A stretch of DNA of 64,000 nt from Blasia pusilla (GCA_050084515.1 CM114271.1:14508001-14572000); one strand, 5' to 3'; shown: positions 1 through 64,000, numbered from the stretch's first letter. Numbers and translations: made by a program. The notes: generated by a model from the sequence alone, not told the origin.

Positions 1-840
1 TGCAGTGACATCTAGCACACGTAGGATCGTGCCGCTTGCTGTAAATACACGTAATCTCCACGATGAAACCTCCTAATCCCGGACGGGTGCGTTTAGGGTC
101 CGCGCCCATCCGCGTCCGTCAGCGCCCGTCGCCGCCCGTCTGTCGCCCGTTGCCGCCCGTCCTTCGCCCCTCGCCCGTCGCCGCCGCGCCCTAACCCTAG
201 ACCGGCCGCGACCTAGCTAGCCATCTTTACTTAACAGCCCCCCGACGGCTGCAAGACCCAAATCTTCTTTTCTTCTCTCTCTCAACACCCTCACTCGCGT
301 ACACCCGACGCCTACTCCGTACTACACTCTGCCGTTGTGCCCAATTCCTGTGCACAAAATCTGAGAAAAACGGACAGCACCAGCCCCCTGCCATCTTTCT
401 CATGTAAAAATAAAGAGAAGTAAAAACGGCACACCCCGCCTAAAACTCCACTCCTCAATCTACATCGGCATATCGAGCCTCGTCCACCCTGTGCTATCAA
501 GGAATCCAGACGCTAGCACCCTAGTCCTAGCTTACACACATACAAGGGAGGTGCTCCAACGGCCCAACATGAGAAAGATGGCTTAGGAAAGCCATCTTCC
601 TCTCTTATATAGGGTTGGGAAGAGCCAAAAGGCTCTTCCCCTAGAAATAGCCCTCCCCTTGGTAGCCTGCGCGCACAGGTTACTAGGGGCGGGTGACCTG
701 GTCAACAAGTCACCCGGCTGTAAAAGATCTCAACATGAAAGTTATCAAAAACGAATGGACCTATCCTCAACCTCATCCGACACCATGGGACAAAGCTACA
801 CTCAAGATAGTCCGCTGGCTCCTACGCCCTATCCACGATA
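1..840 (-). mobile_element. Internally deleted copy (E0) of the split-repeat Gypsy-type family: 5' repeat A1, self-primer site and 5' UTR fused to a post-integrase fragment
   Basis: Minus strand begins TATCGTGG at 840 (cf. TGTCACG/TGTCATG family ends). TATA-like TATATAAG near 604-611. 567-582 is the perfect reverse complement of 390-405. 1-82 on minus translates PGIRRFHRGDYVYLQQAA, matching the post-integrase region of the other copies. Confidence 0.6.
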
Positions 841-3074
841 GATCTCGGCCTATCACCTGCTCAGATGTGAGCCGGGTTCCCGCATTCATGGGATTGGCGA
901 ACTTCTATCGGCGATACGTCAAGGGATTCAATTTGATTGCGAAGCCACTAACCTTGGTGACCAAGGTGGATCACGAGTGGCACCAGGGGGATGAGCAAGA
1001 GCGAGCATTTCAGTTGCTCAAGGAGAGGTTGACGTCTGCGCCCATCTTGAGGAGACCGATCAGGGGGCGTCCTTTTCAATTGCACACAGATTGAAGCATA
1101 TTGGGACTTGGAGCGGTGCTCACCCAGCATGATGATGAGGATAGAGAGTTCATGGTGGCTTGCGCTAGCCGCTCGAACAACGCTGCAGAGGCAAAGTACA
1201 ACTCGTATGAGGGTGAGTGCTTGGCTGCGGTGTGGGCTGTCACGCATTTCACGTGTTCCTTATTCGGCGACCCCTTTACCATCATCACTGATCATCAACC
1301 ACCGAAGTGGTTGATGGAGTCCGACAAGCTTACAGGGAAGCTTGCGAGATGAGCTCTGTTGTTGCAGGAGTATGATTTTCAGGTGGTACATAGACCTGGG
1401 ATGCTCAACCAAGATGCAGATGGGTTGAGTCGTAACCCATGCCCAAGTCAGCGAGATGCGACTGGAGCTTGATGGCATGGAGAGAGTGATGAGGAGTTGG
1501 TGCTAGGATGGCACGCGTCAGCCTATTTAGGCATGTTGGCTATGGAGAGCCATAGTGTGGAGACTTCGATGGCGAGGTCTAATGGAGAGTCCTTGGATCC
1601 CGAGGCCAGTGAGGAGACGACAGATGGCCGAGATATTCATGATGATGGAGTAGTCTTGGAGTACCTTCGTACTGGCAGCGATGCGAGCACTCTGGGTGCT
1701 AGAGAGCGAGATCGGATCCTACAACGGGCCAGACGGTTACGTTGGGAGGGGACACATGTTTTGAGGGTTTGGGAGGATGGCAAAGTACGCGTAGTGCCGC
1801 ATCCTTTGTAGAGAGCACGATTAGTGTAGCATGCCCACGAGGAGTTGGGTCACTTTGGGGTGAAGCGGACGTACAGCTTGCTCCAGATTCAGTATTGGTG
1901 GCGAGGCATGCAGACAGACGTTGAGCATTTTGTTGCCTAATGCATGGTGTGTGATCGGGTTCGAGCCTCATTCAATGCTCCGACTCCACACTTGCATCCA
2001 TTACCGATCATGGGCTTAGGGTATAGATGGAGTTTGGATTTTGCAGGACCTTTGCCTTTGACAGAGCGTCACAGTCGTTATGTGTTGGTGATGGTCGAGC
2101 ACTTCTCAAAGTGGATCGAGTTGGTTGCATTGCCTGACAAAGCGAGTGAGGGAGTAGCTTATGCCCTCCTCGAGAGAGTGCTGAGTCATTATGGCGCACC
2201 GGCTGAGGTGCTGACAGACCAGGGTACCGAGTTTCGGGGTGAGTTCCAAGTCTTGTGTGATCAAGCGCTAATCGACCACCGCAAGACTTCGCGAGATCAT
2301 CCCGAGGCGGATGGATTAGCGGAGAGAGTTGTGTAGACGGTGAAGAGGGGTTTACACAAGTATGGCTTGCAGAGAGATCACCTAGGAGATTGGGACCTCC
2401 AGTTTCCATGGTTGGCGATGGGATACAGATTCAGCAGGAAGGCATCCTTAGCGTCTTTTTCATCGTACTTGCTACTTTATGGCCGAGAGCCAGATTTACC
2501 TATGGCCATTCATCGAGATGCTAGTGAGGTGATGGACCTTGATGACCCACATGTATGGGTGCGAGCATGTTCTTTGAGGGCTGAGTTGTTTTGGAGAGTG
2601 ATGCCCATGGCGCTCGAGAACTTGGCGATTGTGCAGCATCGGGATACGTTGAGGTATGCGACTATTTGGGGTGGTGATTATCGACCAACTATCTGGAGGT
2701 TTCATCAAGGAGATTATGTCTACTTGCAGCAGACAGCACCGACGACGTTGGATGTGACTGCAGGGCACACTATCTTGAGAGTGCGTGACATTTTGCCATC
2801 TGGTGTTCTCTTGCTGGAGGGACGCGATGGGTTGGTATGGAAGGACCATGTGCGTAATTGTGCACCATGTCACCTTCCTAACATTGATGGTACAGTGGAT
2901 CCGAGCTTAGCAGTAGTTCCTGCAGGCTTGCGTTGTATGTTGTGTGGTTCTGCCCGTGGTGCGGTCACGATGCTAGTCTGTGATGGTTGTTCGAGAGGTT
3001 GGCATATGGCATGTCTGACAAAGCCTCTCACTAGGGTTCCTCGGGGACGATGGATGTGTCCCAGATGTACATAG
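841..3074 (+). pseudogene. pol: pol remnant: RT connection/RNase H, DDE integrase, PHD finger (2934-3068)
   Basis: One frame broken by stops. C4HC3 motif CMLC...CDGC..WH..C...CPRC at the end. Confidence 0.92.
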
Positions 3075-3260
3075 AGGAGATACTAGATAGGTTTCGATCC
3101 CGACTTTTTCTCTAACATGGATGAGAGGAAGGCGACTAACGATGGGGCCACATGAACACCCGACCTTCTTGCTCTTAGCGTCCGAGAGATGTATGTCATG
3201 GTAGGTAGGGATAGATGGTTATCTGGAGTAAGTGGGACCTAACCACCAACTAGGGGGGTG

Positions 3261-3388
3261 ATTGGAGATATTTTGGTACTTCTTATCTCGTTGTTTGGAT
3301 GCCATGAGTTAGCATGGGATCGTGCGTGTTTGTGTGTGTGTTCAGTGACAGTGATGTATGTTGTGTAGCAATGTGTATGTGCACGACA
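3261..3388 (+). repeat. Repeat B1 of E1 (128 bp), copy of 3906-4033
   Basis: ATTGGAGAT...GCACGACA occurs at both positions. Follows the purine tract TAGGGGGG at 3251-3258. Confidence 0.95.
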
Positions 3389-3390
3389 GT

Positions 3391-4033
3391 TGTCACGTCC
3401 TTTAGGATAGATCGGTGAGATCTAGTAGAGTGTCTTCAAGAGTAGTGGAGAACAGGCCTAGGAGGTCGAGGATGACGTGCTGAGGCCCCGGGAAACCTGA
3501 GAGAGCAGGTTTTCCCTTCGTTTTGGCTCATTTGGAGCCATATTGAAGAACTTGCTATTTTAGGCAAGTACTATTTTGAGTATATGATCGACTTTCTATT
3601 TTTGGTTAGCGACCCTTGATCTCCTACATCAGGTCAAGAACCAAGGAGGTGACTTGGGAGAATAGGTTACCATGGAGAGAGCTTGGGAGAGGGGAGGGGT
3701 ATATATCCCAAGGAGAGAGAGCTTGAGAGCTCATTCTCTCTTTGTTGAACCTCTTGGCATGAGGCGGCGGAGCTATGGTCCCTTGCCTTGTGAGTGTAAC
3801 CCAAGCCTCTCATTAGGAGAGTGGGTTTGGTTTGACATGAGAGAGAGTGCACACCTTTGAGAGCTATGGTGTGAGATTGTGTAGAGAGAGATTAGATCTT
3901 ACTTTATTGGAGATCTTTTGGTACTTCTTGTCTCGTTGTTTGGATGCCATGAGTTAGCATGGGATCGTGCGTGTTTGTGTGTGTGTTCGGTGACAGCGAT
4001 GTATATTGTGTAGCGATGTGTATGCGCACGACA
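3391..4033 (+). repeat. Terminal repeat A2+B2 of E1 (TGTCACG...CACGACA)
   Basis: Near-identical to 21305-21948 and similar to 22931-23574. TG...CA ends; TATA-like TATATAT near 3700. Confidence 0.95.
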
Positions 4034-6400
4034 GTGGTCCTACCAATCGGGCATACGAGATGGTCGACCGGGGTAGAGGATAAGGTTGCACGATTTAATA
4101 GCAGAGTTTAGGAGTTGGTGCGACTCCCAGCGCGCCAGGAACTCTAGAGAGTTAAACCCATTTATAGCATGGAACAGTATGTTTCATAATTTAGAGGGGG
4201 CGCCCATGGACGATTACCATGAGTTCTCTCAGAGATATGCACGTGAGATCGAGGCATGGAGGCTCTACTATGACCTTCATTATGTGTCATGGACGGAGGC
4301 ATTCCCAAATGAGGAGGAGGAGTCAGGAGAGGCTACTTTCTCTTCCACTAGTGACGTCTTAGGAGGGGTCACTCACACATGAGCACTTGCACCGTCTAGT
4401 CGGGTTCGTCCCAGGTTCAACCCTGTGGTTGAGTTCTTTGCTGAGTCGAGGGCGAGCTACCAGGGGGTACGGACGGAGAAGTTGCGGAGCATCCACGACT
4501 TCTAGAGGCGCCCGGGTGAGAGTTTGCGTGAGGCTTACACTCGCTTGCGCCAGTTGATCAATGTCACTCAATGGGTGACAAAGGCTTAGGCTATCCAGTC
4601 ATAGTACGCGATGCTCCAACGGACCTTGAAGATACGGGTTCGGGAGGGGGTGCTTCTTATGAACATCTCCCGTTGAGAGATGTTTTTAGGACTACCGAGA
4701 ATATTGAGCGCAACATGGCGGAGGAGAGCGTAGCCACCATGGGTTTTGGGCGAGAGCAGTCGTGATTGTCTACAACAACGTAGACTCCGAGATAGGTCGA
4801 CTGTGGCACCACGAGCTCAGGGAGGGTATCAGGAGGCCGTGCCACAAAGACCTATGCCTTCATATGTGGCTGAGCAATAGTCGCCTATTATTACTTGTTG
4901 GTCATGTGGTGGAGTCCATCATCAACACGATTGTACTCGTCAGGGTCATGGACGTGTGCCTTTGCATGGAGGAGGAGATGGTGTTGCACCAAGAGGTTAT
5001 CAGTGTGACTCTTGTGAGAGGTATGGTCATACACTCGCGAGATGTTTTAGTTTACATCTTGAGTTACGTCCATACCGAGGGCTAGAGAGGGCACCAAATC
5101 GAGTAGCCCGTCTAGGTGGGCCTAGAGATCGTGCACTTGGTGGTCCCGTTAGGGGACAAGGAGCAGGAGTTGCCCAACAGGGTGGTAGACCTGCCCGTGG
5201 AGGAGGTAGAGTACCACCACCTAGACATGCCGAGGGAGACATCAGACATGAGGCTGCGATGGCTGCTCAGATACAACATCTACATGAGCATATTGCCACT
5301 ATGGCATTGACGTTATCCGATGCCGGATCCATGTCATCGACATCATATGGAGGTGGCAAAGATATGCAGGATCCTGGTTGGATGTGCGGGGTTGCCCAAA
5401 TGGGGGCCGCCATAGTTGTGAAGCGTGGAGCAACCGCAGAGTTGGATCCAGAGCGAGGGAAAGCCAGAAAAAAGACTAAGCTTCCTCAGTCTTTCACGTT
5501 GTCCAAAGCGATGCGGACCACATTGATGGGTCCTCATCAAAGTTCCTGGAGAGTTGGTGATATTGTTGGTGTGCACTCTTGGAGGGCGATGGGAGAAGCG
5601 AGTGCGACGACTCCTATTTTTGATCCTTAGGAGGGGCACGCGTCGAGCACGTTGTTGGGGGCGGCTAGTGTTGTGTACCGCACTCCTTTATTTTCTGCTT
5701 CCGATGTTGTGACGTTGGGGGTGACGCCCGCCAAGGGTTTTTGGCTGGCCGCTTTACTATGTGAGCGCGGAGTTGGAGTTCTTGCATCACGTTCAGAGGT
5801 GATTGCAGAGGAGGTGATGGACTTGCCCTTGGAGCGGATGCTCAGGCCATCCACGTGAGATTCATGGCAAGCTGCGGGTGCTAGGATGGCGGAGATGCCC
5901 GCTAGAACCGCGATAGAGCGTGCCATGGCTTCTCCTGGTGTTTTGTTGTTGGATAACCAAGGAGATGTCTTCTAGTTGGTGAGTCCCGGAGATAGAGCTT
6001 TTAGTCTGCAGCACGTCTTGTTGGATTCAGGAGGGCAGCCCTTGATCTTAGGGAAAGCGTCATTTAGAGGATTGGGCTTGACGAGAGCCAATGTCGAGCA
6101 TTTTCCATTCCGGATATAGACATCCTTGGGTGGAGTGAGTACCATATAGTTTATCACCCGATATGAGGTCATGGTGAGGATTCTCCCTGAATACCCTATA
6201 GATGAGTCCGTGGTGCGAGCCAAGGCAATAGTGACTGATGCAGAGTCCTACGACGTCTTGGTTGGTGGAGCAGTGTTATATTCGTTGGGGTTTTCCCTGG
6301 ATTACTAGGAGGATTCAGCGTCCTATAGACGAGGATGGTAGTCAAGTGATGGGCGCCTTAGCTCATTACCTGTTCAATTCACCGGTGCAGTGATCGAGCG
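4034..6400 (+). pseudogene. gag-pol: gag (CCHC knuckles, RGG-rich) and aspartic protease remnant of E2
   Basis: CDSCERYGHTLARC near 5003-5044. Protease HVLLDSGGQP with DSG at 6024-6032; YDVLVGG near 6249-6269. Confidence 0.8.
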
Positions 6401-6737
6401 ACGGCCAAGAGAGGTGGAGACCTTAGTAGCATTTAGCGATGCCATCACTTGGCCTAGTGATTTGATTGAGGGACATGTCCATGCACAGGATACTCCCGTT
6501 CCTAACATTTCTATGGAGAGGAGTGTTATGGTAGCTGCATCATTCCGTGGAGGAGAGGTGCCGTTGTGGGGCTCAACTGAGGAGCTTTGACGATTGGCAG
6601 ATGAGCACGTGCAGACCGCGTGGAGCGAGGCATTTGCACGGAAGTATGACGGGTCAGAGGAACCCGAGGTAGCAGGGAGTGCAGCGATAACACCCTTGGA
6701 TACCACACCCATTGAATGGTGTATCCCGGAGCAGGGT

Positions 6738-7433
6738 ATTCGAGTATTAGATCTCTTTGTAGGGATTAGCACTAGATTAGCTGCTATTTTGTAGGAAGGA
6801 GTGCGAGTGCAGTAGTACCTGTATGTGGAGAGTGATAATGTTGCGAGGCGCATCTCACTACAACATATGGCGCAATTACGCCTAGGTTTTCCATACTAAT
6901 TATTTGCGTTCGCGGTACAGGGGTACCAGAGTTTCCTACTGAGAGATAGTTCGTTGTTGGGGGCGCAAGACTTAGAGCGGATAGGGAAAATTGATTTGGT
7001 CATTTCCGGTTGGCCATGTCAAGGCCAATCAAGTGTTGGACGAGGCAGCGGGTTGGCTGACACTCAATCCAGGTTATTTTGGGAGATGTTGAGGGTCTTA
7101 CAACAGTTGCAGGAGCACCAGTCTCGTTCTCCAACCTACATTCTCGAAAATGTGCCGATCTTAGGAGACTCTAGGTCACGGGTGGTGACGAGTGCTCATC
7201 AAGTGCGTGCCTGGATTGGCCCAACAATGTTCTTGGATGCGGCAGTGTAGGTTCTAGAGCCCATCGCCCGCGTCTATGGTGGACCAACTTGGTGCCCCAT
7301 GCGGTGCTAAAAAGGGCGTATGCAAGAGTGGAGCGCCCCTTCCATTTGTTAGTGGATTCCATTCTAGATCCAGGTTGTCGATCACAAGCCATGAGGCACG
7401 ATGATTGACCACCGATGACTATGGTCAACAGGG
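6738..7433 (+). pseudogene. DNMT3-like C5 cytosine methyltransferase domain of E2, N-terminal part (motifs I-VIII)
   Basis: IRVLDLFVGIST (motif I), IDLVISGWPCQG (IV), RLFWEMLRVL, YILENVP (VI), DAA..GSRAHRPRLWWTNL (VIII). Collinear with the DNMT3 catalytic domain. Confidence 0.88.
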
Positions 7434-7729
7434 TGTGGAAAACCGCTAAACAAGCATAACTGGTGGAAAACGGCTCTCACACACACACACACCACCATGG
7501 AGAACAAAATTTGTAATGAGAGAATGAATGGAGGCTGGTCCTCTTCTCAATTATATAGGATATGTATCCTTAACCATAGTCTCAAGTTAGTCTAACTGTG
7601 ATTAACTAACCCTAGTTAAAATAATCATTTTTAACTGACTAACCAAGATTAAGCTTCCCTATTTCGTATGAGTGCCAAATGTAGCAGTTCAGGTGTCTCA
7701 TAAGCTTGATTGTAATTCAATCTTCAATA
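7434..7729 (-). repeat. Copia 3' LTR
   Basis: Direct repeat of 19231-19540; adjacent PPT TTTGAGGGGAG on the minus strand. Confidence 0.93.
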
Positions 7730-7740
7730 CTCCCCTCAAA

Positions 7741-10700
7741 CTCATATCAATATCTTTAACGCCTAAATCCTTTCTAAACATCTCAAACTTATCTATAGAC
7801 AATGCCTTTGTAAAGATGTCATCAATTTTCTGATTTGTACTTATATACACAAAATCAATTTCTCTTGCAAGCACTTGCTCTCTAATAAAATGATAATGCA
7901 CCTCTACATGCTTTATACGAGGATGAAACACAAGGTTATTAGCAAGCTTGATGCTACTAATATTGTCTGCATATATTACACTAGGTCCTAAGTTACTAAC
8001 ACCAATCTCAACAAGTAATCGATGAAGCCACACCGCCTCACATGCTGCATTGGTTGCTCCTCTATACTCAGCCTCTGTTGAAGATAAAACAACTGTAGGT
8101 TGCTTCTTTGAAGCCCAACTTATAGCTGCGCTTCTCAAAGTAAATGAATAACCAGATGTGGAGTGTCGATCAGACACGCTTCCTGCCCAATCAGCATCTG
8201 TGAATCCCTATTATTGAAAACTCAAAGAAGGTTCAAATTAAAGCCCGAATTGAATAGAGAATTTCACATACCGCATAATCCTCCTCACAGCATCAAGGTG
8301 AGGTTTTTGAGGTGCTTGCATAAACTGGCTCACTAGGCCAACAGCATAGCTCAAATCTGGTCTGGTTATAATTAGATAGATCAAACTTCCAACCATACGC
8401 TTGTACATATTAGAATCTGCAAGCAGCTCTCCTTCATCCATTTTTTAGATTCACGCTCTGGTACAACGGTGTAGAGATTGGTTTACAAGCGGTCATACCA
8501 TATTTTGAAAGCATATAAAGAGCATATTATCGTTGTAGTAACCACATGCTCTCTCCAACCTTGATAAACTCAATACCAAGGAAGTACTTGAGTTCTCTCA
8601 AGTCCTTCATATCAAATTTTGCTTGTAACTTAAGCTTGATTTGTTGTACCATTTCTTCAGGACTCCCAGTAATCAAGAGATCGTCAACATACAACACAAT
8701 GAGAATTGTATGATCTTGTCCTCTCAAGACATATAACGAGGAGTAAGAATCACATACCCTAAAATCCAACTCTTGTAGGACGTATGTAATCTTGCCATAC
8801 CAAACTCTGGGAGCTTGTTTGAGCCCGTGTAGAGCTTTCTTCAACCTGCATACGCAAAATGGAAACTTGGGATGCTCATATCCAGGTGGTTGAATCATAT
8901 ATACCTCCTCGTATAGATCTCCATTCAAGAAGGTATTCTTGACGTCTATGTGATGTAATCTCCACTTCTTACTCACTACAACTACAACCACTGTTCTCAC
9001 AATCGCCATCTTTGCAACATGGCTAAATGTTTCCTCATAATCGATACCATATTGTTGTGCATATCCCTTAGCCACCAATCTTGCGTTGTATCTGTTAATT
9101 GTACCATCTTGATTGCGCTTGATTTTGTAAACTCATTTGCAACCAATAGCTTCCTTACCGAAAGGTATATCAACCAGCTCCCATGTTTGTTGATGTCTTA
9201 ATGCAGCAAGCTCTTCGTCCATAGCTTCAATCCATTCGGCTTTACTCACAACTTCTTCAAAATAACTCGGCTCCTGCTCTTGAAGGGTAGTCATCATATA
9301 TGCATGATGTGTCACAAGGAAACCGTCATTGATGAGTCTATGAACTGGATGTATAACTCTACTTGATCTACGAAGTTTTTGTTCAGAGGTAGATGCTTTT
9401 GACACCTGACTCGAGCTTTGACTAGTGTCAACAGACTGAATATGTACTCTTCCCGTCCGTGAACTCACAGATTTAATGGATGAATCTAGGACCTCTCCCA
9501 ATCCTCTACTAGTACTTGGGAAGTTGAAGACAATGTCTGTTGGTTTATAGTCATATTCTCCATCTCAATAGACAAGTTTAGAGATGAAATAAGCTCAGAT
9601 GGAGCATACCATGATGTTAGCTCATCAAAGACAACATCTCGACTAATAATAAGCTGCCTAGAGGATGGAATGTAGCACTTATATCCCTTAGTTCCATCAG
9701 CATAGCCAATGAAGATACATCTTTCAGACTTGGGGTCTAATTTCTAACGTCTCTGAGAAGGAACATGAGCATAACAGATATAGCCAAATACTTTCAAGAA
9801 TGAAAAATCATCTTTACTTCCTGTGAAGACTTCGAATGGAGTTTTATCATGAACTCCTGCTCTTGGAGTTCGATTGATTAAGAAGACTGCACATGCTACA
9901 GTCTCTGCCCAATAAACCTTAGGTATGTTCTTCTCATTCAGCATAGCTCGTGTCGCTTCAGGAATAGGTCGATTTTTCCTCTCAGCCACTCCATTTTGTT
10001 GTGGGGTGTAGCGGCAAGTCACTTGACGTTGGATGCCATTCTGACGTAAATAGTCATCAAACTCTGTTGAAAGATACTCTCCTCCTCCATCACAACGCAA
10101 TTTCAGAATGTGTTGTCCAATCTGCTTCTCTACTAGAACTCTGAATGTTTGGAACATTGAGAATACCTTTGAGTTGGCTTTCAAAAAGTATACCCATATA
10201 TACCTAGAGAAGTCATCCAAAATATGAAACAAAGTACTGGAAACCACTAAGGCTCTGTTGTGATGTTGTCCACACATCACTGTGGATCAACTCCAATATC
10301 TTGGATGCTCTTCTACCTTACTTTGGAAAAGGAAATGTAGCTTGTTTTCCAAATTGGCAAGCAGGACATACCTCTAACTTAGCAAGACTCGCTAATTTAG
10401 GGAGTCCTACTACTATATTAGATGATGAAAGACTCTGTAATCTTTGAAGATTCATATGTCCAATTCTTTTATGCCACACATTTAGATCTGTGACTTGTTG
10501 GCCGGTTTGACCATACATTGTTGTTTGAATCTCTGGCATAGAAACATCTAATTTGAACATTGTGCTAGATCTAGTTCCTTTGGCTATCGTAGTCTGGTCA
10601 TCCATTGTTTCAATGAAACAACCATCTGCGTTAAACTTCACTTGATAACCCTATTCTACTATCTATCCTACAGAGATCAGATTTCTTGCAATGGTAGGAA

Positions 10701-11100
10701 CATAGAGAACATTTCCAAGAGCACAAAGACCATCTTATGGTATTCGAACGTTATCGGTATGCCTGATATGATATAGAGTGTCATCTCCTATGAGCACAAT
10801 TGCAGGATCTTTCACCGGCTCCAAACTACTAAACCATTTCGCTTGTAAGGTCATGTGATTTGATGCACCAGAGTCAATGTACCAATCTGCTGTCGAGTCT
10901 TTCTTGACCATTGCTTCCATATGATGAGTCATGACCAAGAGATGCTCCGTTTGTGAATGTTGTTGTTCTTGGTACTACTCTTGGTGTTGTTGCTCCATAT
11001 AGTTTTGTTGCTGTAAGGCTCCTATTCTCATATCTGCCTTCTTCTTGAAGGAAAACTTTGCAAAGTGATCTTTTATCCCACAGTAATTGCAAGATCCAGG
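7741..11100 (-). pseudogene. pol: Copia pol remnant (knuckle, protease, GAG-pre-integrase, integrase, RT, RNase H)
   Basis: [68 protein letters not shown] in Copia order. Frameshifts and stops. Confidence 0.93.
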
Positions 11101-11103
11101 AAC

Positions 11104-11416
11104 CCTTATATAGGGCTGTAGTGTCTAGGTAGAGATGCAGTTCCATAGATAGGGTTGGGGATTACTCTGTTGAGGGTGACTTTTCTAGTAGGGCCCGCTC
11201 TTAGGTAGGAGGATATAGTATCCAGTGCACTCAAAGAACAGTTAGTTCTTTGAGTAGAGCGTGTTGCGTTGAGAATTAGCCTTGGTAGTGAGTTGAGCTC
11301 TTGGCTATGGTGATTCCCGCAAGCTTCGACCTGGATTCTCCCATTGTGGAGTGGGTTTGGCTCGATTGTATGTGATTGTATACCCGTTTAATGACAATAG
11401 GTCTTTCACGAATTTC
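11104..11416 (+). repeat. 5' repeat A1 of E3 (no B segment follows)
   Basis: Aligns with 17998-18310 and stops exactly where B2 starts in the 3' copy. Confidence 0.9.
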
Positions 11417-11428
11417 ACTCAAAGAACT
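11417..11428 (+). promoter_or_regulatory. Putative self-priming primer-binding site
   Basis: ACTCAAAGAACT is the exact reverse complement of AGTTCTTTGAGT (11244-11255), which lies about 30 nt after a TATA-like GATATAG. Confidence 0.65.
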
Positions 11429-11999
11429 GGAATAGATGGATGGTACCTTCGATCGTGGATTAGTAGGATCTGGTTAGGGTTGATTGTGTACTCAGTCATG
11501 GATATTCATGGCTTGTGGCCTATGTTGGAGATGTGAATCTGGTGCGTGGTTTGTTGGGAAAGAAGCGCCTTGCGGAGAGCTTTCTAACGCGCTTTAGATC
11601 GCCGAATTTCGTCAAGGGAGTTGGAAGTTATCAAGGATTGAAGATTCTTATTCGTGTTCGACAATTTTCTTATGTGGAGAGCTTGGAGTGCGGAAGATCT
11701 GTTGAAGTTCATCCAGATCGGGTGAGAGGTTCCTATTGCTACATGTATTTTAATCTCATGTGAAGCTATGTGCTTCACATGAGTGTGTGGAGCGTTGCGG
11801 ATTTCTGTGTGTATGAATCTGGGCGGAACCGCTGTCGGATTTGCGATTCTGGAGGTGTATGGACAGTAAGATTGTCTGATTTTTAGCTCAGAGTACGGAG
11901 CTCAATTGTAGCTGAATTTTTGTCAAGGAGAAATTTGTTGGACATATGGAGATGATCATGTCAGGAGGTTTTTTCCCCAAGAGGATGGGAGATGGACTT

Positions 12000-13560
12000 T
12001 GGAGGATGGGCCTCAATCAGCCCCAACTCAGTATGATCATTGTGGGAGACGAGGTCATCCTCGAGAGCGTTGCTTTGATCTTCATCCAGAGTTGAGATCA
12101 AGCCGCGGCCGTGGTGGAGTAGCTCCGAGAGGCCGAGGTGGTAGGGGTGGTAGAGGTGGACCAGCAGTTGGAGAGCCTATGGTGGCTACCCCTACCACTA
12201 CGACAGAGTCAGCTATGGTTGCCACGATTGAGCAGTTGTAGCAGAGGTTGGCTACTATGGCTGGAATCCAACATAGAGCAGGCTCAAGAGCAGGGGCTTC
12301 CACCTCTTATGGAGGGGATGATCTCTCTTATATGGAGAGTGCAATACAGGTTGAGGCATCAGCTGTAGTTACGAGAGGAGCCACTCGAGCGTCATAACCA
12401 TGTGGTGCTATTGTGGAGTTGGACCCACAGAGGGGTGAGGCTGGGAGGCAAGCTAGGCTCCCCAGTCATTCTTGTTGTCTGAGGTGCTGAGGACTCCATC
12501 CATGGTTCCTACGCAACCTATTGAGTCTACAGTGGGGATTGAGGCATCTACATTGCGTGTAGTAGACACGGATGCAGCATCGAGTGCAGTATTGCGGATG
12601 GCAACTTCAGTGTTGGGATCCCCATTGTTTTTAGCCACGGAGTTCATGGCTTTAGGAGTTGACTTAGCTCCTGTATTTTTGCTAGCAGCCACCTTGTGTG
12701 AACGTGGGAGTGTTACTGCTACACATGCTGGGGTGGATGAGGGTGTTGCGATGGAGCAACCCTCTATGTCAGGTGTAGCATTGAGTACCAGTGCTACTTG
12801 GCAGGCAGTAGCAACGAAGATGGATGCATTACCAGCCCGGCCAGGCATTGATCGTGAGAGGCTTACACTTGGTGTATGTATGTTGGACAACCGCAGTGGG
12901 ATATTCTGATTGGTGAGTCCTACAGTACAGGTGTATAGACCAAATAAAGTCTTGTTAGACTCTAGTACCCAACCTTTGAGGTTGGGAAAGGCAGCATGTA
13001 TTGGTTTGGGTATTCGGAGGTCAAAGCTTGAGCCTTGCCCATTCCAAATTCAAACATCACTTGGAGGAGCCAATGATAGGTCTCAATTCATGATACGGGA
13101 GAAGTTGTCTATACAGTTGGACCAGATCATGCGTCTGATAGCTCCCGGTTGGGAGTACCTGCAATAGTCACATCATCCGAGTCGTATGATGTACTAGTTG
13201 GAGGAGCACTATTGTACCCAATGGGTTTTCAGATAGACTACTGGACTGAGACAACGTCTTATAGACCTGGTTGGAAGTCCGAGGATGGACGTATGAGCCA
13301 GGTTCCTATGAGATTTATTTACGGGGCTCGACTAGGAGGATCTTCCCCAACGGTGTTAGCATCCGTGGCTGGTTTTAATGGAGTAGTCACTTGGCCAAGA
13401 GACTTTTTGGAGGATAACCTTTCTGCTATGGATTCTCCTGTGCATGAGGAGGTAGAGGAGGTCCCTAGTTTTGCAGCAGTGGCATCCTCATTGTTGGATG
13501 TGCCACTTTGGAGTTCAGGCGGTGCACTACGGCATGAGGCTGATCGCCTAGTGTAGGAGG
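12000..13560 (+). pseudogene. gag-pol: gag C-terminus (knuckle, RGG) and protease of E3
   Basis: YDHCGRRGHPRERC, RGRGGRGGRGG, KVLLDSSTQP (D at 12958-12960), YDVLVGG. Confidence 0.8.
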
Positions 13561-13682
13561 CTTGGTGTGATGTTGTTATACCTCACGAGGAAGAGGAGGC
13601 TCCACGACGGACTCCTACTTCTGGTCCAGTTGGGTTATCCCCTTTGGATACTACACCCATTGTATGGCAGTATCCGCTCGAG

Positions 13683-14320
13683 GGCATTTGTGTGTTAGAT
13701 CTCTTTGGTGGGATTAGCATTGGTTTGGCTGCAGTGTTGCAGGCCGGTATTCTTGTGCAGAGAAACGTGTATGTGGAGCGAGATGAGACAGCCCAGAGAG
13801 TCTCATCTTGACATATTGGTCAGTTGATGCGGAGATATCCTAAGTTGTTGCCGCCATCAGCTATTCGTGGGTACCAGCGTGCTTTGCCATCACATATTGT
13901 ATTGTTGGGGGCGCAGGATCTTGAGAGGGTTGGTCGTGTGGATTTGATGATTGCTGGATGGCCATATGCATGTCAGGATCATACACGTGTTGGTTGTGGT
14001 GAGGGATTACACAACCCTAGATCTCGATTGTTTTGGGAAACGTTACGGGTGTTACGACATCTTTAAGTTCATCAGGCACGTGCTCCAGTTTACATTCTGG
14101 AGAATATTCCATTGTTTGGTGGCACTCGGACCCGGATGATGGCGAGTGTTCATGAGGTGCGGTCTTAGATTGGACCAGCGGTGTTGTTGGATGCAGCGCA
14201 AGTTGGATCGCGTGTACATCGTGCGATGGGATTTGCTATTGGTGTGACATCGGTTGCTTCCATTTCTGAGGCTTCACGACGTCATGTGTTGGGTCAGGCC
14301 ATGGACCTGGATTTTGAATC
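13683..14320 (+). pseudogene. DNMT3-like methyltransferase domain of E3 (internal deletion near 14222)
   Basis: ICVLDLFGGISIGLAAVLQAGI, VDLMIAGWP(YA)CQD, RLFWETLRVL, YILENIP, DAAQVGSRVHR|AMGF...RRHVLGQAMDL. Confidence 0.86.
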
Positions 14321-14574
14321 TTGGTATGGCCGAGCAACGTTGACTTTGGACTATGTCTATGGGTCTTCCACCCCTTGTGATGAGCTCGATGCCTACCGGG
14401 ACGGTAGAGACATCAGCTCGGGGTGAGGAGAACAGTATTTTGCATCCTTGGAGTAAATGGGATGTAATGGCTGGGCATGTGGAGTTGGTTGCTCATGCAA
14501 GTGGAGGAGATATTTGCTCAGATGATGGTGTAGCTAAGGGTGTACCATCTTGTGAGGGGATTGCATAGCAGCCA

Positions 14575-17500
14575 ATGGTGTCGTCCTCTCCCTCTAGTGT
14601 GCCAGTGGAGGAGACTTGGGAGCCATTACTTGGGCCCAAGCTTACGGGAGGTGAGAAACAACGCTTGACACAGTTCATATATGCTTATAGGAGTTGTTTT
14701 GCCTTTAGCATGAAGGAGTTGGGTGCTTTGGTTGGACCCGATATACGGATTGATTTGGCTAGTAATATGCCAATCTTTTGTCGTCCCTACCAATATAGTG
14801 ATATGGAGAGGGACCTGATTCAGAGTAGGACGTTGGACCTTTTAGAGGTTGGATTAGTGGAGTTGTCGCATGGAGAGTATGCATCAGCCACTATCATGCG
14901 TGCTAAAAAGGATGTGCATGGCAACTACACAGATAGGCGGATGTGTGGAGATTACCGTCCTATCAATCGGCAGACCAAGGCCAATAGGTATGCCATGCCT
15001 ACACTTGAGGAGATCTTTGATGTGGTGGGACAGGCAAAGATTTTTAGTACTTTGGATCTCCGGGCAGGATACCATCAATTGCCGATTCAAGAGAGTGACA
15101 AGGCCAAGACAACATTTTGGGGTGTCAACTCTCATGGCAAGGATTGTTTGTACCAGTGGAAATTCTTACCCTTTGGGTTGAAGATCGCACTTGCCAAGTT
15201 TCAGAGAGTGATGGACATGATCCTAGCAGGGTTGGATTTTTTTCGGTGTTACATTGATGATATCTTGGTGTTCCGTAATACGGTGGAGGAGCATCAGATA
15301 CATTTGCAGATTGTGTTTGAGCGGTTGAAAGCTCATGGTCTACGTTGAGATTCAGGAAAGTGTAAGTTCTTCCATGAGGATGTTGAGTATTTGGGTCATG
15401 TGATCTATCCATGTGGTTTGGGAGTTCAGCAAGCAAAGGTGGAGGCTATTGCACTTATCCCTCGTCCGATAGATGTGAGTAGAGTTCGAGCATTCATGGG
15501 ATTGGCGAACTATTATCAGAGGTATGTGAAGGGATTTAGTGCTATGGAAAAGCCTTTGAACCAATTGCTGAAATCAAATCAGGAGTGGCACTGGGGAGAT
15601 GATCAGGAGAGAGCTTTTGTGCAGCTCAAGGCCCACTTGGTGGCGGCGCCTATCTTGAGGAGACCTATCAAAGGGCGTCCATTTCAGTTACACACTGATT
15701 GGAGTAGGTTGGGACTTGGAGCGGTGTTGACACAACATGATGATGAGCACATGGAGTTTGTGGTGGCCTATGCAAGTTGTTCGAATAATGCAATGAGTCG
15801 CTATAATTCATATGAGGGAGAGTGCTTGGCAAGAGTGTGGGTTGTGGCACACTTTAGGTGTTACTTGTTTGGCACACAATTTACCCTTGTTACTAATCAC
15901 CAGCCGCTCAAGTGGTTGATGGAGTCTGACAAGCTTACAGGGAAGCTTGCACGGTGGGCTCTTATCTTACAGGAGTATGACTTCCAGATGGTACATAGAC
16001 TTGGAGTTGCCAACCTTGATGCTGATGGGTTGAGTAGAAACCCATGTACTAGCCAAGAGGATGCAAGTGGGGCTAGATGACATGGCGAGGTTGATGAGGA
16101 GATGGTGTCAGGTTGGCATGCATCTGCCTTTTTATGTTGGTAAGGGGTGGACTCTAGTATGGAGGACCACATGACATCTTACTCTAGTCAGAGGGTAGAT
16201 GGCCAGCCTTCAGATCCTAAAGTTGGAGATGGTGGTACGGATCAGCCTGATATTCATGATGATGCGTTGGTGTTGGAGTTCCTACGGATCAGTAGGATGC
16301 CATGCATAGTGAGTGCCAAGGAGCGAGATCGTGTTCTTCAACGTGCTAAGAGGTATCGATTGGAGGGAATACATATTCTCCGTGTGTGGGAGGATGGTAG
16401 AGTACGAGTAGTGCCGCATTTGGCTGAGAGAGAGCGCATTGTGCGACATGCCCATGAGGAGTTGGGACAGTTTGGGGTAAAGCGTACTTATAGCTTACTC
16501 CTTGGTCAGTATTGGTGGCGCGGCATGCATACTCAGGTGCAGCAGTTGGTGTCACGTTGTATGGTTTGTGATTGGGTGAGGGCATCATTCAATGCCCCTA
16601 CACCATAGTTATACCCCTTGCCTATTATGGGGTTGGGTTACCGTTGGAGTGTGGACTTTGCGGGACCGTTACCGTTGATTGTACGACATCCTCGATATGT
16701 GTTGGTGATGGTGGAGCTCTTTTCCAAGTGGATTGAGTTGGTGGCATTACTTGACAAGGCAAGTGAGGGAACGGCATATGGGTTTCTTGATAGAGTGCTT
16801 AGTCATTTTGGTGCACCAGCTGAAGTGCTGACCGACCAGGAAACAGAGTTTCAGGGTGAGTTTCAGGTCTTGTGTGTCAAGGCGTTGATTGATCATCGGA
16901 CCACGTCTCGAGATCATCCAGAGACGGATGGTTTGGCTGAGCGTGTGGTTCAGACGGTGAAGAGGGCATTGCGCAAGTATGGCCTACAGAAGGGGCATCT
17001 TGGAGATTGGGATATTCAGTTGCCATGGTTAGCCATGGGGTATAGGTTTAGTCGCCAAGCATCCTTGGCTTCCTTCTCACCTTATTTTTTGTTATACAGC
17101 CGAGATCCAGACTTGCCAGTAGCAATTCGTCGGGAGTCTAGTAAGGTGGTGAACCTTGACGACTCCGGGGGCAGAGCTCTTTTGGAGAGTTATGCCAACA
17201 GACTTTGAGAATCTTGTCATTGCTCAACACAAGGATACGTTGCGGTATGCAACCATTCGGGGTGGAGGTTATCGACCATCGATTCGTAGATTCTATGTGG
17301 GGGACAATGTCTATTTGCAGCAAATTGCACCAACAACATTGGATGTGACGGCAGGCTGCACTATTTTACGAGTGCGCGAGGTGTTAGCTTCTGGAGTTCT
17401 CATAATGGAGGGTCGTGATGGAGTTGTTTGGAAGGACCATGTGCGTAATTGTGCATGTCATCTTCCAAATGTGGATGGTACTATTGACCCAAGCTTAGCC

Positions 17501-17661
17501 ATGATACGTGCTAGCTTGAGGTGCATGTTTTGTGGGTCTGCTAGTAACGCATCCCGTATGTTGGTGTGTGATCGGTGTTCTAGGGGTTGACACATTATGT
17601 GTTTGACTCCACGCATGGATGTTGTTCCTACTGGAAGGTGGGTTTTTCCTCCATGTACTTA
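14575..17661 (+). pseudogene. pol: RT, RNase H, integrase and PHD of E3
   Basis: RMCGDYRPIN, DLRAGYHQ, LPFGL, YIDD (Ty3/Gypsy RT); RNase H; HHCC + DDE; CMFC..CDRC..H..C. Confidence 0.93.
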
Positions 17662-17834
17662 GGAGGGGTAGATGACTTGATCTTTGCATGATATGGATTA
17701 CAGATGTGCGACTAACGATGGGGCAACCTGGCACCCGGCCTTTTGATTCGTGCACCCATGAAGGAGTATAGCATGTAGTAGATGTATAGGGCTACTTGGG
17801 AGTTAGAGGGACCTAACCGCCAGTTAGGGGAGCG

Positions 17835-18418
17835 AGTTGTGGTACACTTGTGTTTGTGGATGCTCTCGTCTATGTTATGTATGTATGTGAGTATGGTATG
17901 TCAGCGATGTATGTTGTATGACGATGTGGATTCGCACGACAACTGTCATGACCATACAAATTATGTCATAGAGTATAGTGTGCTAGTAGAGGCCATACCT
18001 TATGTGGGATCGTAGTGTCTAGGTAGAGATGTGGTTCCATACATAGGGTTGGGAGTTACTCCGTTGAGGGTGACTTTTCCAATAGGGCCCGTTCTTAGGT
18101 TGGAGGATATAGTGTGGAGTGCACTCAAAGAACAGTTAGTTCTTTGAGTTGAGCTTGTTGCGTTGGGAGTTAGCCTTGGTAGTGAGTAGAGCTCTTGGCT
18201 ATGATGGTTCCCGCAAGCTTCGACATGGATTCTCCCATCGTGGAAAGGGTTTGGCTCAATTGTATATGATTCTATACGTATTTTATGACATTAGGTCTTT
18301 CACATATTTCTAGTTGTGATACACTTGTGTTTGTGGATGTTCTTGTCTATGTTATGTATGTATGTGAGTATGGTATATGAGAGATGTATGTTGTATGACG
18401 ATGTGGATTCGCATGACA
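17835..18418 (+). repeat. E3 3' repeats: B1 (17835-17941), AC spacer, A2 (17944-18311), B2 (18312-18418)
   Basis: 107-bp B duplicated; junction CACGACA-AC-TGTCATG. Confidence 0.93.
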
Positions 18419-18714
18419 ATCTGGAACAGCTTTTCCAATGCATCCCAGGCACCCTTTGGAGTATCAACATCTTGGATGTGACCTATTATTGGCGAACTGA
18501 TCGTTATTGAAATGTAGTGGATTACTTGCCTTGCGCGTTTGTTCCAAGCGCGAACATTCAAATCTGTTGAGTCACCTTCTGGCTTGGCGTCATCACCTGT
18601 GACAAGCTCCCATAGTTCTTGACCCATGAGAAATTTTTTCATGCGAAACTTCCAGACATTGTAATTTTGCTTGTCTAGCTTCTCGCATGTGATTGTTGTT
18701 GAGGAATACTCCAT
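18419..18714 (-). pseudogene. gag: Copia gag N-terminus
   Basis: KLDKQNYNVWKFRMKKFLMGQELW...AWDALEKLF. Confidence 0.85.
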
Positions 18715-19230
18715 GATAAATGATTTCACTCACAAAAATATAATTTCAGGTTTTCTACTGCTCCAATTGAAGCATAGACCACTCCTACACAGAAATTGAC
18801 CTGAAATTTGCCAATATTGATCAACTCTATGAAAGAACTAGTCGAAATTGGCCTGTAGAGAGCAAACTGCACAACTTTTTTTCACTAATTGCACTTTCCT
18901 ACATTGAAATTGCTGTTGTAGGAGCTCAGAGTGTCAGAATTGAGCCATTTTGGATGCATTGGAAAGCTCTCGACAAGTTCTACGAGATTGTTGGGACCAG
19001 CCATACGCAACGGTCTAGAAAAAGTGGAACCTGACGGCTGAATCAACTGGGAAAGCCCTCAAAAACGTATCCAAAGTTTTATCACCATCAAAGATCCACT
19101 TGAAATCTGCACCCACTGAGCTCAGAGTAAAATTTCCTTCTCCCAAACTGAAATTGTGCCTTCTCTTGCCTCTCTTCTCTCTTCAAACACCAAGTATTTC
19201 AAGTGATGTTCTCCTCTCGCTCTGATACAA

Positions 19231-19540
19231 TGTGGAAAACTGCTAAATAAGCATAACTGGTGGAAAACGGATCTCACACACACACCACCATGGAGAACGA
19301 AATTTGCAATGAGAGAATGAATGGAGGTTGGTCCTCTTCTCAATTATATAGGGTATGTACAAGCAACCCTAACCCTATCCTTAACCATAGTCTCAAGTTA
19401 GCCTAATTGTGATTCACTAATCCTAGTTAAGATAATCGTGCTTAACAAACTAACCAAGATTAAGCTTCCCTACTTTGTGTTAGTGCCAAATGTAGCAGTT
19501 CAAGTGTCTCATGAGCTTGATTGTAACTCAATCTTCAAAA
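19231..19540 (-). repeat. Copia 5' LTR
   Basis: Direct repeat of 7434-7729, followed on the minus strand by a PBS. Confidence 0.93.
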
Positions 19541-19545
19541 CAGAG

Positions 19546-19790
19546 TAGGCAGGTCCCAAGCAGCCTCGTCCACGTTTGTGAGTTTTCTCGCTTCCTATGC
19601 ATACAAGGAGGTCGGTCCTGGCTTGGATTGGGATGACCAGGTGCAACGATTGGTGGAGCCCAACGCCGATGAGAGAGAGCGAGTGATGGGATTTCCCACA
19701 AAAGTGACGGCAGTACCGTTAGTGTCAGAGGCACCACAACGCCATGTCTTGGGTCAGGCGATGGACCTGAACTGCTTGATATGTACGAGC
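19546..19790 (+). pseudogene. DNMT3-like domain of E2, C-terminal part (motifs IX-X)
   Basis: EPNADERERVMGFPTKVT...SEAPQRHVLGQAMDLNCL, cf. DNMT3 EMERVFGFP..YT....SR..RQRLLGRSW. Confidence 0.85.
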
Positions 19791-19909
19791 AGCGCCATAT
19801 GAGATCGCGACAGATCACAGTGGTTGTATTGGTGAGCCCCATGCCTACCGAGACGGTGTAGGCAGTGGCTGGGGACGAGACCCGAGGAGATCTACACACC
19901 AGGGGAGAT

Positions 19910-22606: not shown

Positions 22607-22792
22607 GGGAGATACTAGGTAGGTTTCAATTCTGACTTTTTCTGTGACATGGATGACAAGAAGGCGACTAACGATGGGGCCACATGAGCACCCGGCCTTT
22701 CTACTCTTAGCGTCCTAGAGATGTATGTCGTGGTAGGTAGGGATAGAGGGCTATCTGGAGTTAGAGGGACCTAACCAACAACTAAGGGGGCG

Positions 22793-23574
22793 ATTGGAGA
22801 TATTTTAGTACTTCTTGTCTCATTGTTTGGATGCCATGAGTTAGCAGGGGATCATGCGTGTTTGTGTGTGTGTTCAGTGACAGCGATGTATGTTGTGTAG
22901 CAATGTGTATGTGCACGACAGAACGACAACTATCACGTCTTTTGGGATAGATCGGTGAGATCTAATAGAGCGCCTTCGTGAGTAGTGGGGGACATGCTCA
23001 GTAGGTGGAGGATAACTTGCTAAGGCCCCGAGAAACTTGAGAGAGTAGGTTTCCCTTCGTTTCGGTTCATTTGGAGCGATATTGAGGAATTTACTATTTT
23101 AGGTACATACCATTTTGAGTTTATCATCAACTTTTTATTTTTGTTAAGTGCCCCTTGACCTCCTACATCAGGTCTAGAGCCAAGGAGATAACTTGGGAGA
23201 ATAGGTTACCATGGAGAGAGCTTGGGAGAGGTGAGGGGTATACCTCAAGGAGAGAGAGCTTCAGAGCTCATTCTCTCTTTGTTGAACCTCTTGGCATGAG
23301 GCGGCGGACCTATGATCTTGCTTGCTTTGTGTGTGTAACCCAAGCCTCTCCTTAGGAGATTGGGTTTGGTTTGATATTGAGAGAGACATGTGAGAGTGCA
23401 CACATTTGAGAGCTATGGTGTTGAGAGAGATTGGATCTTGATTTATTGGAGATATTTTGGTACTTCTTATCTCGTTGTTTGGATGCCATGAATTAACTTG
23501 GGATCGTGTGTGTTTGTGTGTGTGTGTTCGGTGACAGCAATGTATGTTGTATAGCGATGTGTATGCGCACGACA
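22793..23574 (+). repeat. E2 3' repeats: B1 (22793-22920), spacer, A2+B2 (22931-23574)
   Basis: B duplicated at 23445-23574. Junction CACGACA-gaACGACA-AC-TATCACG carries a small duplication. Confidence 0.92.
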
Positions 23575-62560: not shown

Positions 62561-62869
62561 CGTGACCTATGGAGAATCGGAGGGTGGTGGTTGCTAATTG
62601 GAAACCTCTAGAGCAACAACATGCGCTCCCAACTCAGAGGCCAAATCTCTAGGGACTCCACTATGTCTTGCATCAACGAAATGAACTCCCGTCTCTCTAT
62701 GCTCTCGTGATATGTCCCATGAAGTCCATGGATGCCTCTCCATCACCATTGCGCCCCCAGCCAGTGTCTCGCCCATCTCGGTAGACGTTGTGCTACAAAG
62801 TGGATGTAATGTCACAGATGCCTCTCGCATCCGTTGTTGCTCAGCCAAACCAAGACTAAACACCCAAGT

Positions 62870-63803: not shown

Positions 63804-64000
63804 TCTCCTCCGGATATTGCCACACAATCAGTGTGGTGTACAAGGGTGTCAACGTCTCCACTCCTAGAGCACGTGGTAACTCTGTCCCGTCTCACTCTAG
63901 AGCATAAACTCGGCTCCACGCTTGCCTCATGAGCTCGTCTACTCTCCTCTGCAAATTGATGCTCGTTCCCCAAAAGCTGAAGAAGTGTCGCCAACAAATG

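Follow-up and report, generated by a model that had tools for sequence, protein, structure and literature searches.

Background

KnitGypsy-Dnmt3, from the alga Klebsormidium nitens, is a Gypsy element whose polyprotein contains an unpermuted, intron-less DNMT3-like domain with a Ka/Ks below 0.2 (PMC5890265). The copies of K. nitens were placed within DNMT3 in the published phylogeny, and the text of the same paper documents the recurrent capture of methyltransferases in other lineages and considers that another transposon DNMT might methylate RNA (PMC5890265). The KnitGypsy-Dnmt3 domain gave no methylation in yeast, where human DNMT3B failed too, and the authors call the result inconclusive (PMC5890265). 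SymbioDIRS-Dnmt3 methylates CG de novo in yeast, and for elements of the KnitGypsy-Dnmt3 type the legend of Fig. 4c of that paper gives a DIRS-like terminal-repeat arrangement (PMC5890265).

Later work speaks of DNMT3 in retrotransposons “in streptophytes” (PMC12344493; bioRxiv 10.64898/2026.05.21.726589), and an opinion paper of 2019 holds that land plants “such as tracheophytes” lack transposons of this type and places their loss at the origin of land plants (PMC6338049). That retrotransposons encode an enzyme of the class with which the host silences them is a standing puzzle, and the sole streptophyte case in print is algal and showed no activity in one assay.

The window analysed here, i.e. 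the whole 64-kb stretch of liverwort DNA, contains what are very probably three dead, nested Ty3/Gypsy copies of a marchantiopsid liverwort family, with the order LTR-gag(CCHC)-PR-DNMT3-like methyltransferase-UAG-RT-RNase H-integrase-PHD-LTR, that belong to a land-plant branch of the streptophyte Gypsy-DNMT3 lineage. The kind of element is already known from Klebsormidium; what is new is the host range, a land plant. An initial inspection of this DNA without database searches (the sequence-only reading) knew of no description of the domain in land-plant Gypsy elements, and full-text literature searches likewise turned up no named bryophyte or other land-plant copy; supplements, which may list bryophyte copies, lay outside that search.

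Organization of the locus

Self-comparison of the window, together with tblastn using database relatives, resolved a stack of nested retrotransposons. Element A, a truncated upstream Gypsy copy on the plus strand, occupies positions 1-4034, and its 3′ LTR (3391-4034) is also the 5′ LTR of element 1, with which it stands in tandem. This common plus-strand LTR has the ends TGTCACG...CGACA and shares 85.3% identity with the LTR at 22933-23587; with a solo LTR at 21305-21949 the figure is 95.2%. Element 1, likewise Gypsy and on the plus strand, extends from the LTR at 3391-4034 to its plus-strand 3′ LTR at 22933-23587. Its gag, protease and linker were located on the plus strand at 4080-6590 by tblastn with the Marchantia protein P0011, residues 21-1049 of which cover 4080-7244, and the CCHC knuckle of its gag lies at 4896-4934. 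What remains of its RNase H and integrase is found at 19911-22932 on the same strand, with a decayed PHD finger (22466-22603) at the end; the RT core is gone, residues 696-953 of protein P0014 having no tblastn match in 19911-22932. The solo LTR at 21305-21949 is located within the integrase of element 1.

Element 1 is interrupted by a Copia element on the minus strand (7434-19541; LTRs at 7434-7730 and 19231-19541, 85.1% identical), the minus-strand ORFs of which encode a Copia-type integrase, RT and gag. This insertion splits the first copy of the methyltransferase and holds, in turn, element 2, a second Gypsy-DNMT3 element on the plus strand (11104-18310; LTRs at 11104-11416 and 17998-18310, 87.5% identical). 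In element 2 the RT (14569-15348), RNase H (15349-16080) and integrase (16144-17208) were read on the plus strand from the Pfam families RVT_1, RT_RNaseH, Integrase_H2C2 and rve. Element 3, also Gypsy-DNMT3, lies on the minus strand at 59873-64000 and runs past the end of the window; it includes a PHD finger, integrase, RNase H and a partly deleted RT. Elements 1, 2 and 3 share approximately 70% DNA identity wherever they can be aligned, the RT-integrase regions included, and so represent separate sublineages. The LTRs of elements 1 and A are of the ordinary kind, and a duplicate of the final ~129 bp of the LTR sits directly upstream of it; the 313-bp LTRs of element 2 are plain.

The assignment to Ty3/Gypsy follows from the succession RT, RNase H and integrase between LTRs (the Pfam order being that of element 2), from a CCHC gag and from an aspartic protease, the site of which is LLDSG in the relative P0014 and has decayed to LLDSS in copy 2. 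No target-site duplication of the Copia element or of element 2 was recognizable. The CpG observed/expected ratio is 0.56-0.74 in the four Gypsy elements versus 0.43-0.76 elsewhere in the window, and transitions predominate among the differences between paired LTRs, CpG sites accounting for 9 of 39, 10 of 69, 7 of 30 and 4 of 25; neither the ratio nor the LTR-pair substitutions of the window elements give a distinctive signal of self-methylation. The window also contains a host exon on the minus strand (43382-44479) for a SUPPRESSOR OF ABI3-5 (SUA)/RBM5-like protein, the identity of which is highest with Marchantia paleacea (67%) and falls from 63% in two Riccia species to 53% in Calypogeia, 45% in a lycophyte and 43% in Physcomitrium. 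On the strength of this exon, the window is assigned to a marchantiopsid liverwort, hence to a land plant.

The methyltransferase domain

The sequence-only reading had assigned a C5 methyltransferase domain to three intervals of the window, and tblastn with intact relatives placed one in each of the three, between protease and RT. Copy 1 is divided by the Copia element. Its N-terminal part (6591-7433, plus strand; motifs I to VIII) has three in-frame stops and one frameshift and ends at the insertion, and its C-terminal part (19542-19790, plus strand), which comprises the last stretch of the target-recognition region together with motifs IX and X, was delimited by tblastn with protein P0002. 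The cut is clean, at 7433/7434, and the domain resumes at approximately 19539, after the 12-kb insertion: by tblastn, residues 545-547 of P0002 align on either side of the cut and residues 545-624 align onto 19539-19778. The motifs of copy 1 lie at 6738-6764 (I), 7008-7031 (PCQ), 7140-7163 (ENV), 7262-7288 (VIII), 19656-19685 (IX) and 19746-19778 (X). Over its 348 codons this copy carries four in-frame stops, a frameshift and a G to V change in motif I, and its catalytic motifs are present.

Copy 2 (13557-14426, plus strand) retains motif I (13686-13712), the PC region (13953-13976), ENI (14094-14117) and motif X (14286-14315). It has four stops, two extra codons that separate the P and the C of PC, and a deletion of 99 codons from motif VIII to just before motif IX. 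Copy 3, which together with its linker occupies 62861-63975 on the minus strand, keeps every motif (I, 63775-63801; PC, 63511-63534; END, 63376-63399; VIII, 63250-63276; IX, 62966-62992; X, 62870-62902), with six stops, one of them in place of the Q of PCQ, and one frameshift. Motifs I, IV, VI, VIII, IX and X had been reported for every copy; this holds for copies 1 and 3, but copy 2 is without motif VIII. All copies had likewise been described as broken, and they are, with 4, 4 and 6 in-frame stops in copies 1, 2 and 3 and frameshifts in 1 and 3. The three copies of the window cannot make an enzyme.

A search for the Pfam family PF00145, suggested at the outset as a check, was run on ORF pieces and on intact relatives instead of on a consensus, for which the intact database relatives and a read-through of copy 1, its stops written as X, stood in, and copy 1 matches above the cut-off. 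The match covers 6900-7250 (E 2.8e-11, 43.9 bits, curated cut-off 22) and is the one that passes among seven ORF pieces; the piece at 13812-14066 reaches E 9.8e-4 and 19.1 bits, below the cut-off, and the other five of the seven gave no match. The family is matched by six of eight relatives scanned and by all of five further relatives. With the read-through of copy 1, 24 proteins were found (16 of Marchantia polymorpha, two of Calypogeia fissa, two of Sphagnum and four unnamed), at identities of at most 58%. In P0014 the methyltransferase, RT and RNase H follow one another in one protein.

The type of methyltransferase was approached through the intact Calypogeia protein P0002, which is collinear with the catalytic domain of DNMT3A (E 8.4e-11): residues 315-500 align with 9-174 (motifs I-VIII) and residues 589-628 with 238-277 (motifs IX-X). 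The HMMER alignments to DNMT3A and DNMT3C are both collinear, and the motif order is therefore unpermuted, DNMT3-like and not DRM-like, as had been argued from the window alone. Among solved C5 methyltransferases, a profile of 12 sequences scores 71-84 bits with DNMT3C/A/B, 34-43 with plant DRM, 31-40 with HhaI and 27-29 with DNMT2, and it finds no DNMT1 or chromomethylase at E 1e-3. The DRM match is limited to motifs I-V and lies towards the C-terminus of the DRM chain (query 634-764 to chain 226-350), which is what is expected from the permutation of DRM.

Structural comparison points to the same group. An AlphaFold2 model of P0002, built from an alignment of 70 sequences, has mean pLDDT values of 90-98 in 10-residue blocks over residues 301-640. 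The Foldseek matches listed to rank 50 with this model are all DNMT3A/B/C, the best at E 5e-17, and against catalytic-domain chains the target-normalized TM-score is 0.78-0.84, at 22-24% identity over 323-352 aligned columns. The Pfam matches of the scanned relatives include neither PWWP nor ADD, and the N-terminal side of these proteins consists of Gag and protease. The domain of the window is thus, as judged from alignments and a predicted model, of the DNMT3 catalytic type and, because PWWP and ADD are absent, is neither a full DNMT3 nor a DNMT3 orthologue.

The in-frame UAG and the PHD finger

In element 2 the frame that encodes gag, protease and methyltransferase ends at a TAG (14566-14568, plus strand) followed by CAG CCA, with the RT in the same frame, and the ORFs 14344-14568 and 14569-15348 are contiguous. 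Element 3 has an in-frame TAG at the corresponding end (62594-62596, minus strand) followed by CAA CCA, and both the tail of its methyltransferase and its RT are in frame -1. The ORFs of approximately ten relatives stop no more than four residues from the same aligned place and have a similar tail. The Marchantia gene models P0014, P0015 and P0021 continue from the methyltransferase into the RT, and the P0014 model omits the stop-bearing stretch.

The sequence UAG-CAR-YYA is a leaky-stop signal of plant viruses, and the contexts TAG CAG CCA and TAG CAA CCA, read in two decayed copies, would fit readthrough of this type. The domain had been described as embedded in pol. Its place between protease and RT is as stated, but there is not one continuous Pol, as the UAG splits gag-protease-methyltransferase from RT-RNase H-integrase. 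Since the in-frame stop after the methyltransferase is conserved, the enzyme would be made with Gag and protease and not with Pol. In active relatives, the enzyme would be translated as the C-terminal part of a Gag-protease-methyltransferase product, and synthesis of RT, RNase H and integrase would require readthrough of the UAG. It would then reach the abundance of Gag, enter the particle with Gag and be freed by the protease. Once packaged, it might methylate the new cDNA of the element, or the DNA of the integration site, with S-adenosylmethionine as methyl donor, a step to which we give somewhat less than an even chance.

The other chromatin-related module is the PHD finger of the integrase. 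In element A the integrase ORF (2337-3074) closes with an intact PHD finger (2934-3068, plus strand; PF00628, E 2.7e-10, 40.6 bits, cut-off 24), and in elements 1, 2 and 3 it is decayed, with a stop inside that of element 3 (60061-60195, minus strand). Among the 116 relatives whose architecture was read, 40 have a PHD finger, and the algal clade has it too. A scan of a single integrase C-terminal ORF gave no match to a chromodomain. The integrase chromodomain of chromoviruses has a role in targeting integration, and the PHD finger may tether integration to a particular state of the histone tail.

Conservation and selection

Across 70 relatives, residues C408, E451, N452, R491 and R493 are at least 90% conserved, as are parts of motifs I, IX and X. 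C408, Q409, G410, E451, V453 and R493 are invariant in 12 members of clade A (see below), Klebsormidium and Closterium included.

The ratio dN/dS, on which the sequence-only reading had made its interpretation depend, was estimated for the three copies by the method of Nei and Gojobori and lies well below 1, at 0.18-0.25 for the whole domain (230-327 codons compared) and 0.13-0.23 for motifs I-VIII; dS between copies is saturated (1.4-2.8, with one comparison not computable), so that the ratios are rough and say no more than that the copies diverged mostly under constraint. As a benchmark, RT-RNase H compared between divergent elements gives 0.10-0.18, and pN/pS is approximately 0.4 in the methyltransferase versus 0.26-0.35 in RT-RNase H. 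The constraint on the methyltransferase appears comparable to that on RT-RNase H, or slightly weaker, and these estimates, rough as they are, support the idea that the domain evolved under purifying selection.

The domain could have been kept for a role other than DNA methylation, either as a nucleic-acid-binding or scaffold module in the manner of DNMT3L, or as an RNA m5C methyltransferase that acts on the genomic RNA of the element. The lack of DNA methylation by KnitGypsy-Dnmt3 in yeast and the proposal of RNA methylation for another transposon DNMT (PMC5890265) speak for it, and so does the position of the enzyme in the Gag-protease frame, beside a nucleic-acid-binding CCHC Gag. Against it, the 70 sequences show at least 90% conservation of the catalytic Cys, the Glu of ENV, the motif VIII RxR and parts of motifs I, IX and X, features that a pure scaffold could dispense with. 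In DNMT3L the catalytic motifs have decayed. In fold and sequence, moreover, the domain is nearest to the DNA enzymes DNMT3A/B/C and not to DNMT2. This alternative is considered unlikely, and a DNA methyltransferase of the DNMT3 type is the preferred reading of the domain.

Distribution and phylogeny

A profile search of 1.84 billion representatives returned 5580 proteins at E<=1e-3, 1346 at 1e-10 and 325 at 1e-30. The best 150 of the 5580 matches all score at least 174 bits, and those whose neighboring domains were read look transposon-borne. The domain is near-complete in 116 of 174 proteins with a match to it. Two architectures were found: gag-PR-MT-RT-RH-INT, as in the window, and RT-RH-MT-INT-PHD, which is the commoner.

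A tree of 111 domain sequences separates a clade of 33 (clade A, SH-aLRT 96) from a clade of 78 (clade B, SH-aLRT 96); it is an unrooted tree from a quick search, with SH-aLRT as its only support measure, without host DNMT3 or DRM of plants, and with 40 of its 108 inner branches unresolved. Clade A consists of 23 sequences with the order PR-MT-RT, seven of the domain alone and the three copies of the window; its named members include P0125 of Klebsormidium nitens (GAQ93235.1) and four Closterium proteins. Clade B is made up of RT-RH-MT-INT proteins or fragments thereof, among them the “pol” of Scenedesmus sp. PABB004. Within clade A the window copies fall in a subclade of 17 with a support of 100, and the only named members of this subclade are from Marchantia, Calypogeia and Sphagnum, all of them bryophytes. 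The same position relative to protease and RT in the three copies of the window and in the 23 database relatives of the clade with readable neighbors bears out the proposal that the domain is a stable trait of the family.

A further search gave 217 matches; the named organisms among the best 120 are Marchantia polymorpha, M. paleacea, Calypogeia fissa and Sphagnum species, and no vascular plant is named among those 120. Several gene models of Marchantia polymorpha have domains that lie only 0.003-0.05 substitutions per site apart, and with many near-identical gene models the members of the family in this species appear to be young and intact.

In the comparison with algal retrotransposons that the sequence-only reading had called for, the window copies group with those of Klebsormidium and Closterium (SH-aLRT 96) and are not a separate land-plant invention; from the shared clade, the liverwort elements are placed within the known streptophyte Gypsy-DNMT3 lineage, as its land-plant branch. 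In a different scenario, a host DNMT3 would have entered the liverwort elements in an event separate from that in the elements of Klebsormidium and Closterium, the shared clade reflecting no more than similar host donors. Host genes could in principle fall within the clade, as the tree was built without host DNMT3, and recurrent capture is documented in other lineages (PMC5890265). Nevertheless, the insertion point between protease and RT is identical in all members of the clade with readable neighboring domains, and the same integrase PHD finger occurs in both domain clades. Clade B, in addition, scores at least 174 bits with the family profile versus 71-84 for animal DNMT3 (with a comparable but different profile), which suggests that host enzymes are further off. 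Independent capture is therefore held to be very improbable, and descent from the streptophyte Gypsy-DNMT3 lineage is retained.

The idea that the pieces derive from a host DNMT3 gene in which transposons landed, and are not parts of the elements, draws on similarity to DNMT3 only and is refuted, with practically no probability left to it: all three copies have the domain in frame and in one and the same position, between protease and RT, database proteins from several species unite gag, protease, methyltransferase, RT, RNase H and integrase in a single polypeptide, and PWWP and ADD are absent from the Pfam hits of the relatives scanned.

Significance

The broader picture that emerges is tentative, and we rate it at slightly less than an even chance. 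It would be that of an old green-plant Gypsy lineage with its own chromatin toolkit, a DNMT3-type writer and a PHD reader, which persisted in liverworts and Sphagnum after the transition to land, was lost or is unseen in vascular plants, amplified recently in Marchantia polymorpha, and uses a leaky stop to make its methyltransferase at the level of Gag. If this picture is correct, the role of transposon-encoded DNA methyltransferases becomes testable in a genetically tractable land plant, and the published view of land plants as devoid of such elements would have to be corrected. It also bears on the time at which land plants lost transposon-encoded methylases.

The window itself holds fossils only; what makes it valuable is that it points to a family that is apparently young and intact in a model liverwort. 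Should the lineage live in liverworts, the activity of the enzyme, the marking of cDNA, the landing site and silencing could all be addressed in Marchantia polymorpha, for which transformation, genome editing and methylome maps are available.

Comparison with known systems

KnitGypsy-Dnmt3 resembles the elements of the window in being Ty3/Gypsy, in its unpermuted, intron-less DNMT3-like domain and in the signature of purifying selection (below 0.2 there, 0.13-0.25 here), and the K. nitens protein P0125, which from its species and architecture is assumed to be one of the published copies, falls in the same domain clade. It differs in that the host of the present elements is a land plant, a liverwort, and in that these belong to a liverwort/Sphagnum subclade with a conserved stop between methyltransferase and RT. 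Neither the integrase PHD finger nor this stop is described for KnitGypsy-Dnmt3 in the passages of the publication on which the comparison is based (PMC5890265).

The catalytic domain of animal DNMT3A/3B/3C is the best match in both sequence and structure, with the ten motifs in the same order and with the PC, ENV, RxR-type and IX/X patterns. On the other hand, identity is 22-24%, the family of the window has no PWWP or ADD, and the enzyme is fused behind Gag and protease. The segment between motifs VIII and IX is also longer in P0002, with 88 residues between the aligned blocks versus 63 in DNMT3A, and motif IV reads PCQ in the window family and PCN in DNMT3A. Plant DRM2 is a DNMT3 relative and matches the profile over motifs I-V, but, unlike the domain of the window, it is permuted.

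The green-algal RT-RH-MTase-INT-PHD Gypsy elements, such as that of Scenedesmus sp. PABB004 (P0094), share with the window a related DNMT3-like domain (at least 174 bits), the Gypsy backbone and the PHD finger; in them, however, the methyltransferase lies between RNase H and integrase, and the domain belongs to the other clade, that of 78 sequences. A limited literature search found no paper that names this arrangement. SymbioDIRS-Dnmt3 and the EpiLTRs are, as here, retrotransposons with a cytosine methyltransferase, but the former has a DIRS backbone and the latter an enzyme of another family, sister to DNMT4, and their authors regard them as independent acquisitions (PMC5890265; bioRxiv 10.64898/2026.05.21.726589). 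Finally, chromoviruses carry, like the elements described here, a chromatin reader at the C-terminus of the integrase, which is a chromodomain in their case and a PHD finger in the liverwort family.

Arrangement of the copies and their LTRs

Elements A (1-4034) and 1 (4035-23587), two copies of the Ty3/Gypsy family characterized by a DNMT3-like methyltransferase between protease and RT (Gypsy-DNMT3 copies), have a single LTR in common (3391-4034), which results in a tandem internal-LTR-internal arrangement, and their internal parts are 88-91% identical. In both, the terminal ~129 bp of the LTR occur a second time directly before it, with 91-93% identity between the paired segments (3261-3388 with 3906-4034 in element A, and 22793-22921 with 23445-23574 in element 1). 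A "DIRS-like" repeat structure is noted for the Klebsormidium element by de Mendoza (2018; PMC5890265), and the repeat described here is possibly related to it.

The stop codon between methyltransferase and RT

An in-frame TAG marks the boundary between the methyltransferase and RT frames in element 2 (14566-14568, plus strand; next codons CAG CCA) and in element 3 (62594-62596, minus strand; next codons CAA CCA), and the ORFs of many relatives end at this same position. In plant viruses, UAG-CAR-YYA is a leaky-stop context, and both sequences fit it.

Base composition and surrounding elements

On the coding strand, all four Gypsy-DNMT3 copies (regions 1-7433, 11104-18310 and 19542-23587, plus; 59873-64000, minus) are G-rich and C-poor, with a GC skew of 0.13-0.25, and contain more T than A. 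This strand bias, which would fit a plus-strand loss of C to T, is less marked in the Copia element inserted in element 1 and in the remaining window. The latter includes a minus-strand host gene for a SUPPRESSOR OF ABI3-5/RBM5-like RNA-binding protein (43382-44987, perhaps also 49457-50317), whose nearest matches are in Marchantia paleacea (67%) and Riccia (63%), a similarity that places the source of the DNA among the marchantiopsid liverworts. It also includes two long ORFs that, by eye, resemble a LINE-type reverse transcriptase (53929-57533, plus) and a MULE-like transposase (34581-37348, minus).

Relatives and the integrase PHD finger

In the domain tree, the methyltransferase domains of several Marchantia polymorpha gene models (P0008, P0011, P0015, P0022 and others) are separated by only 0.003-0.05 substitutions per site, which suggests that the family amplified recently in this species.

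In the window's Gypsy-DNMT3 family, the C-terminal part of the integrase is a PHD finger (element A, 2934-3068, element 1, 22466-22603, and element 2, 17522-17587, plus; element 3, 60061-60195, minus); the one integrase C-terminal ORF scanned, that of element A, gave no chromodomain match. The integrase of the green-algal Gypsy relatives, in which the methyltransferase lies between RNase H and integrase, ends in the same PHD finger.
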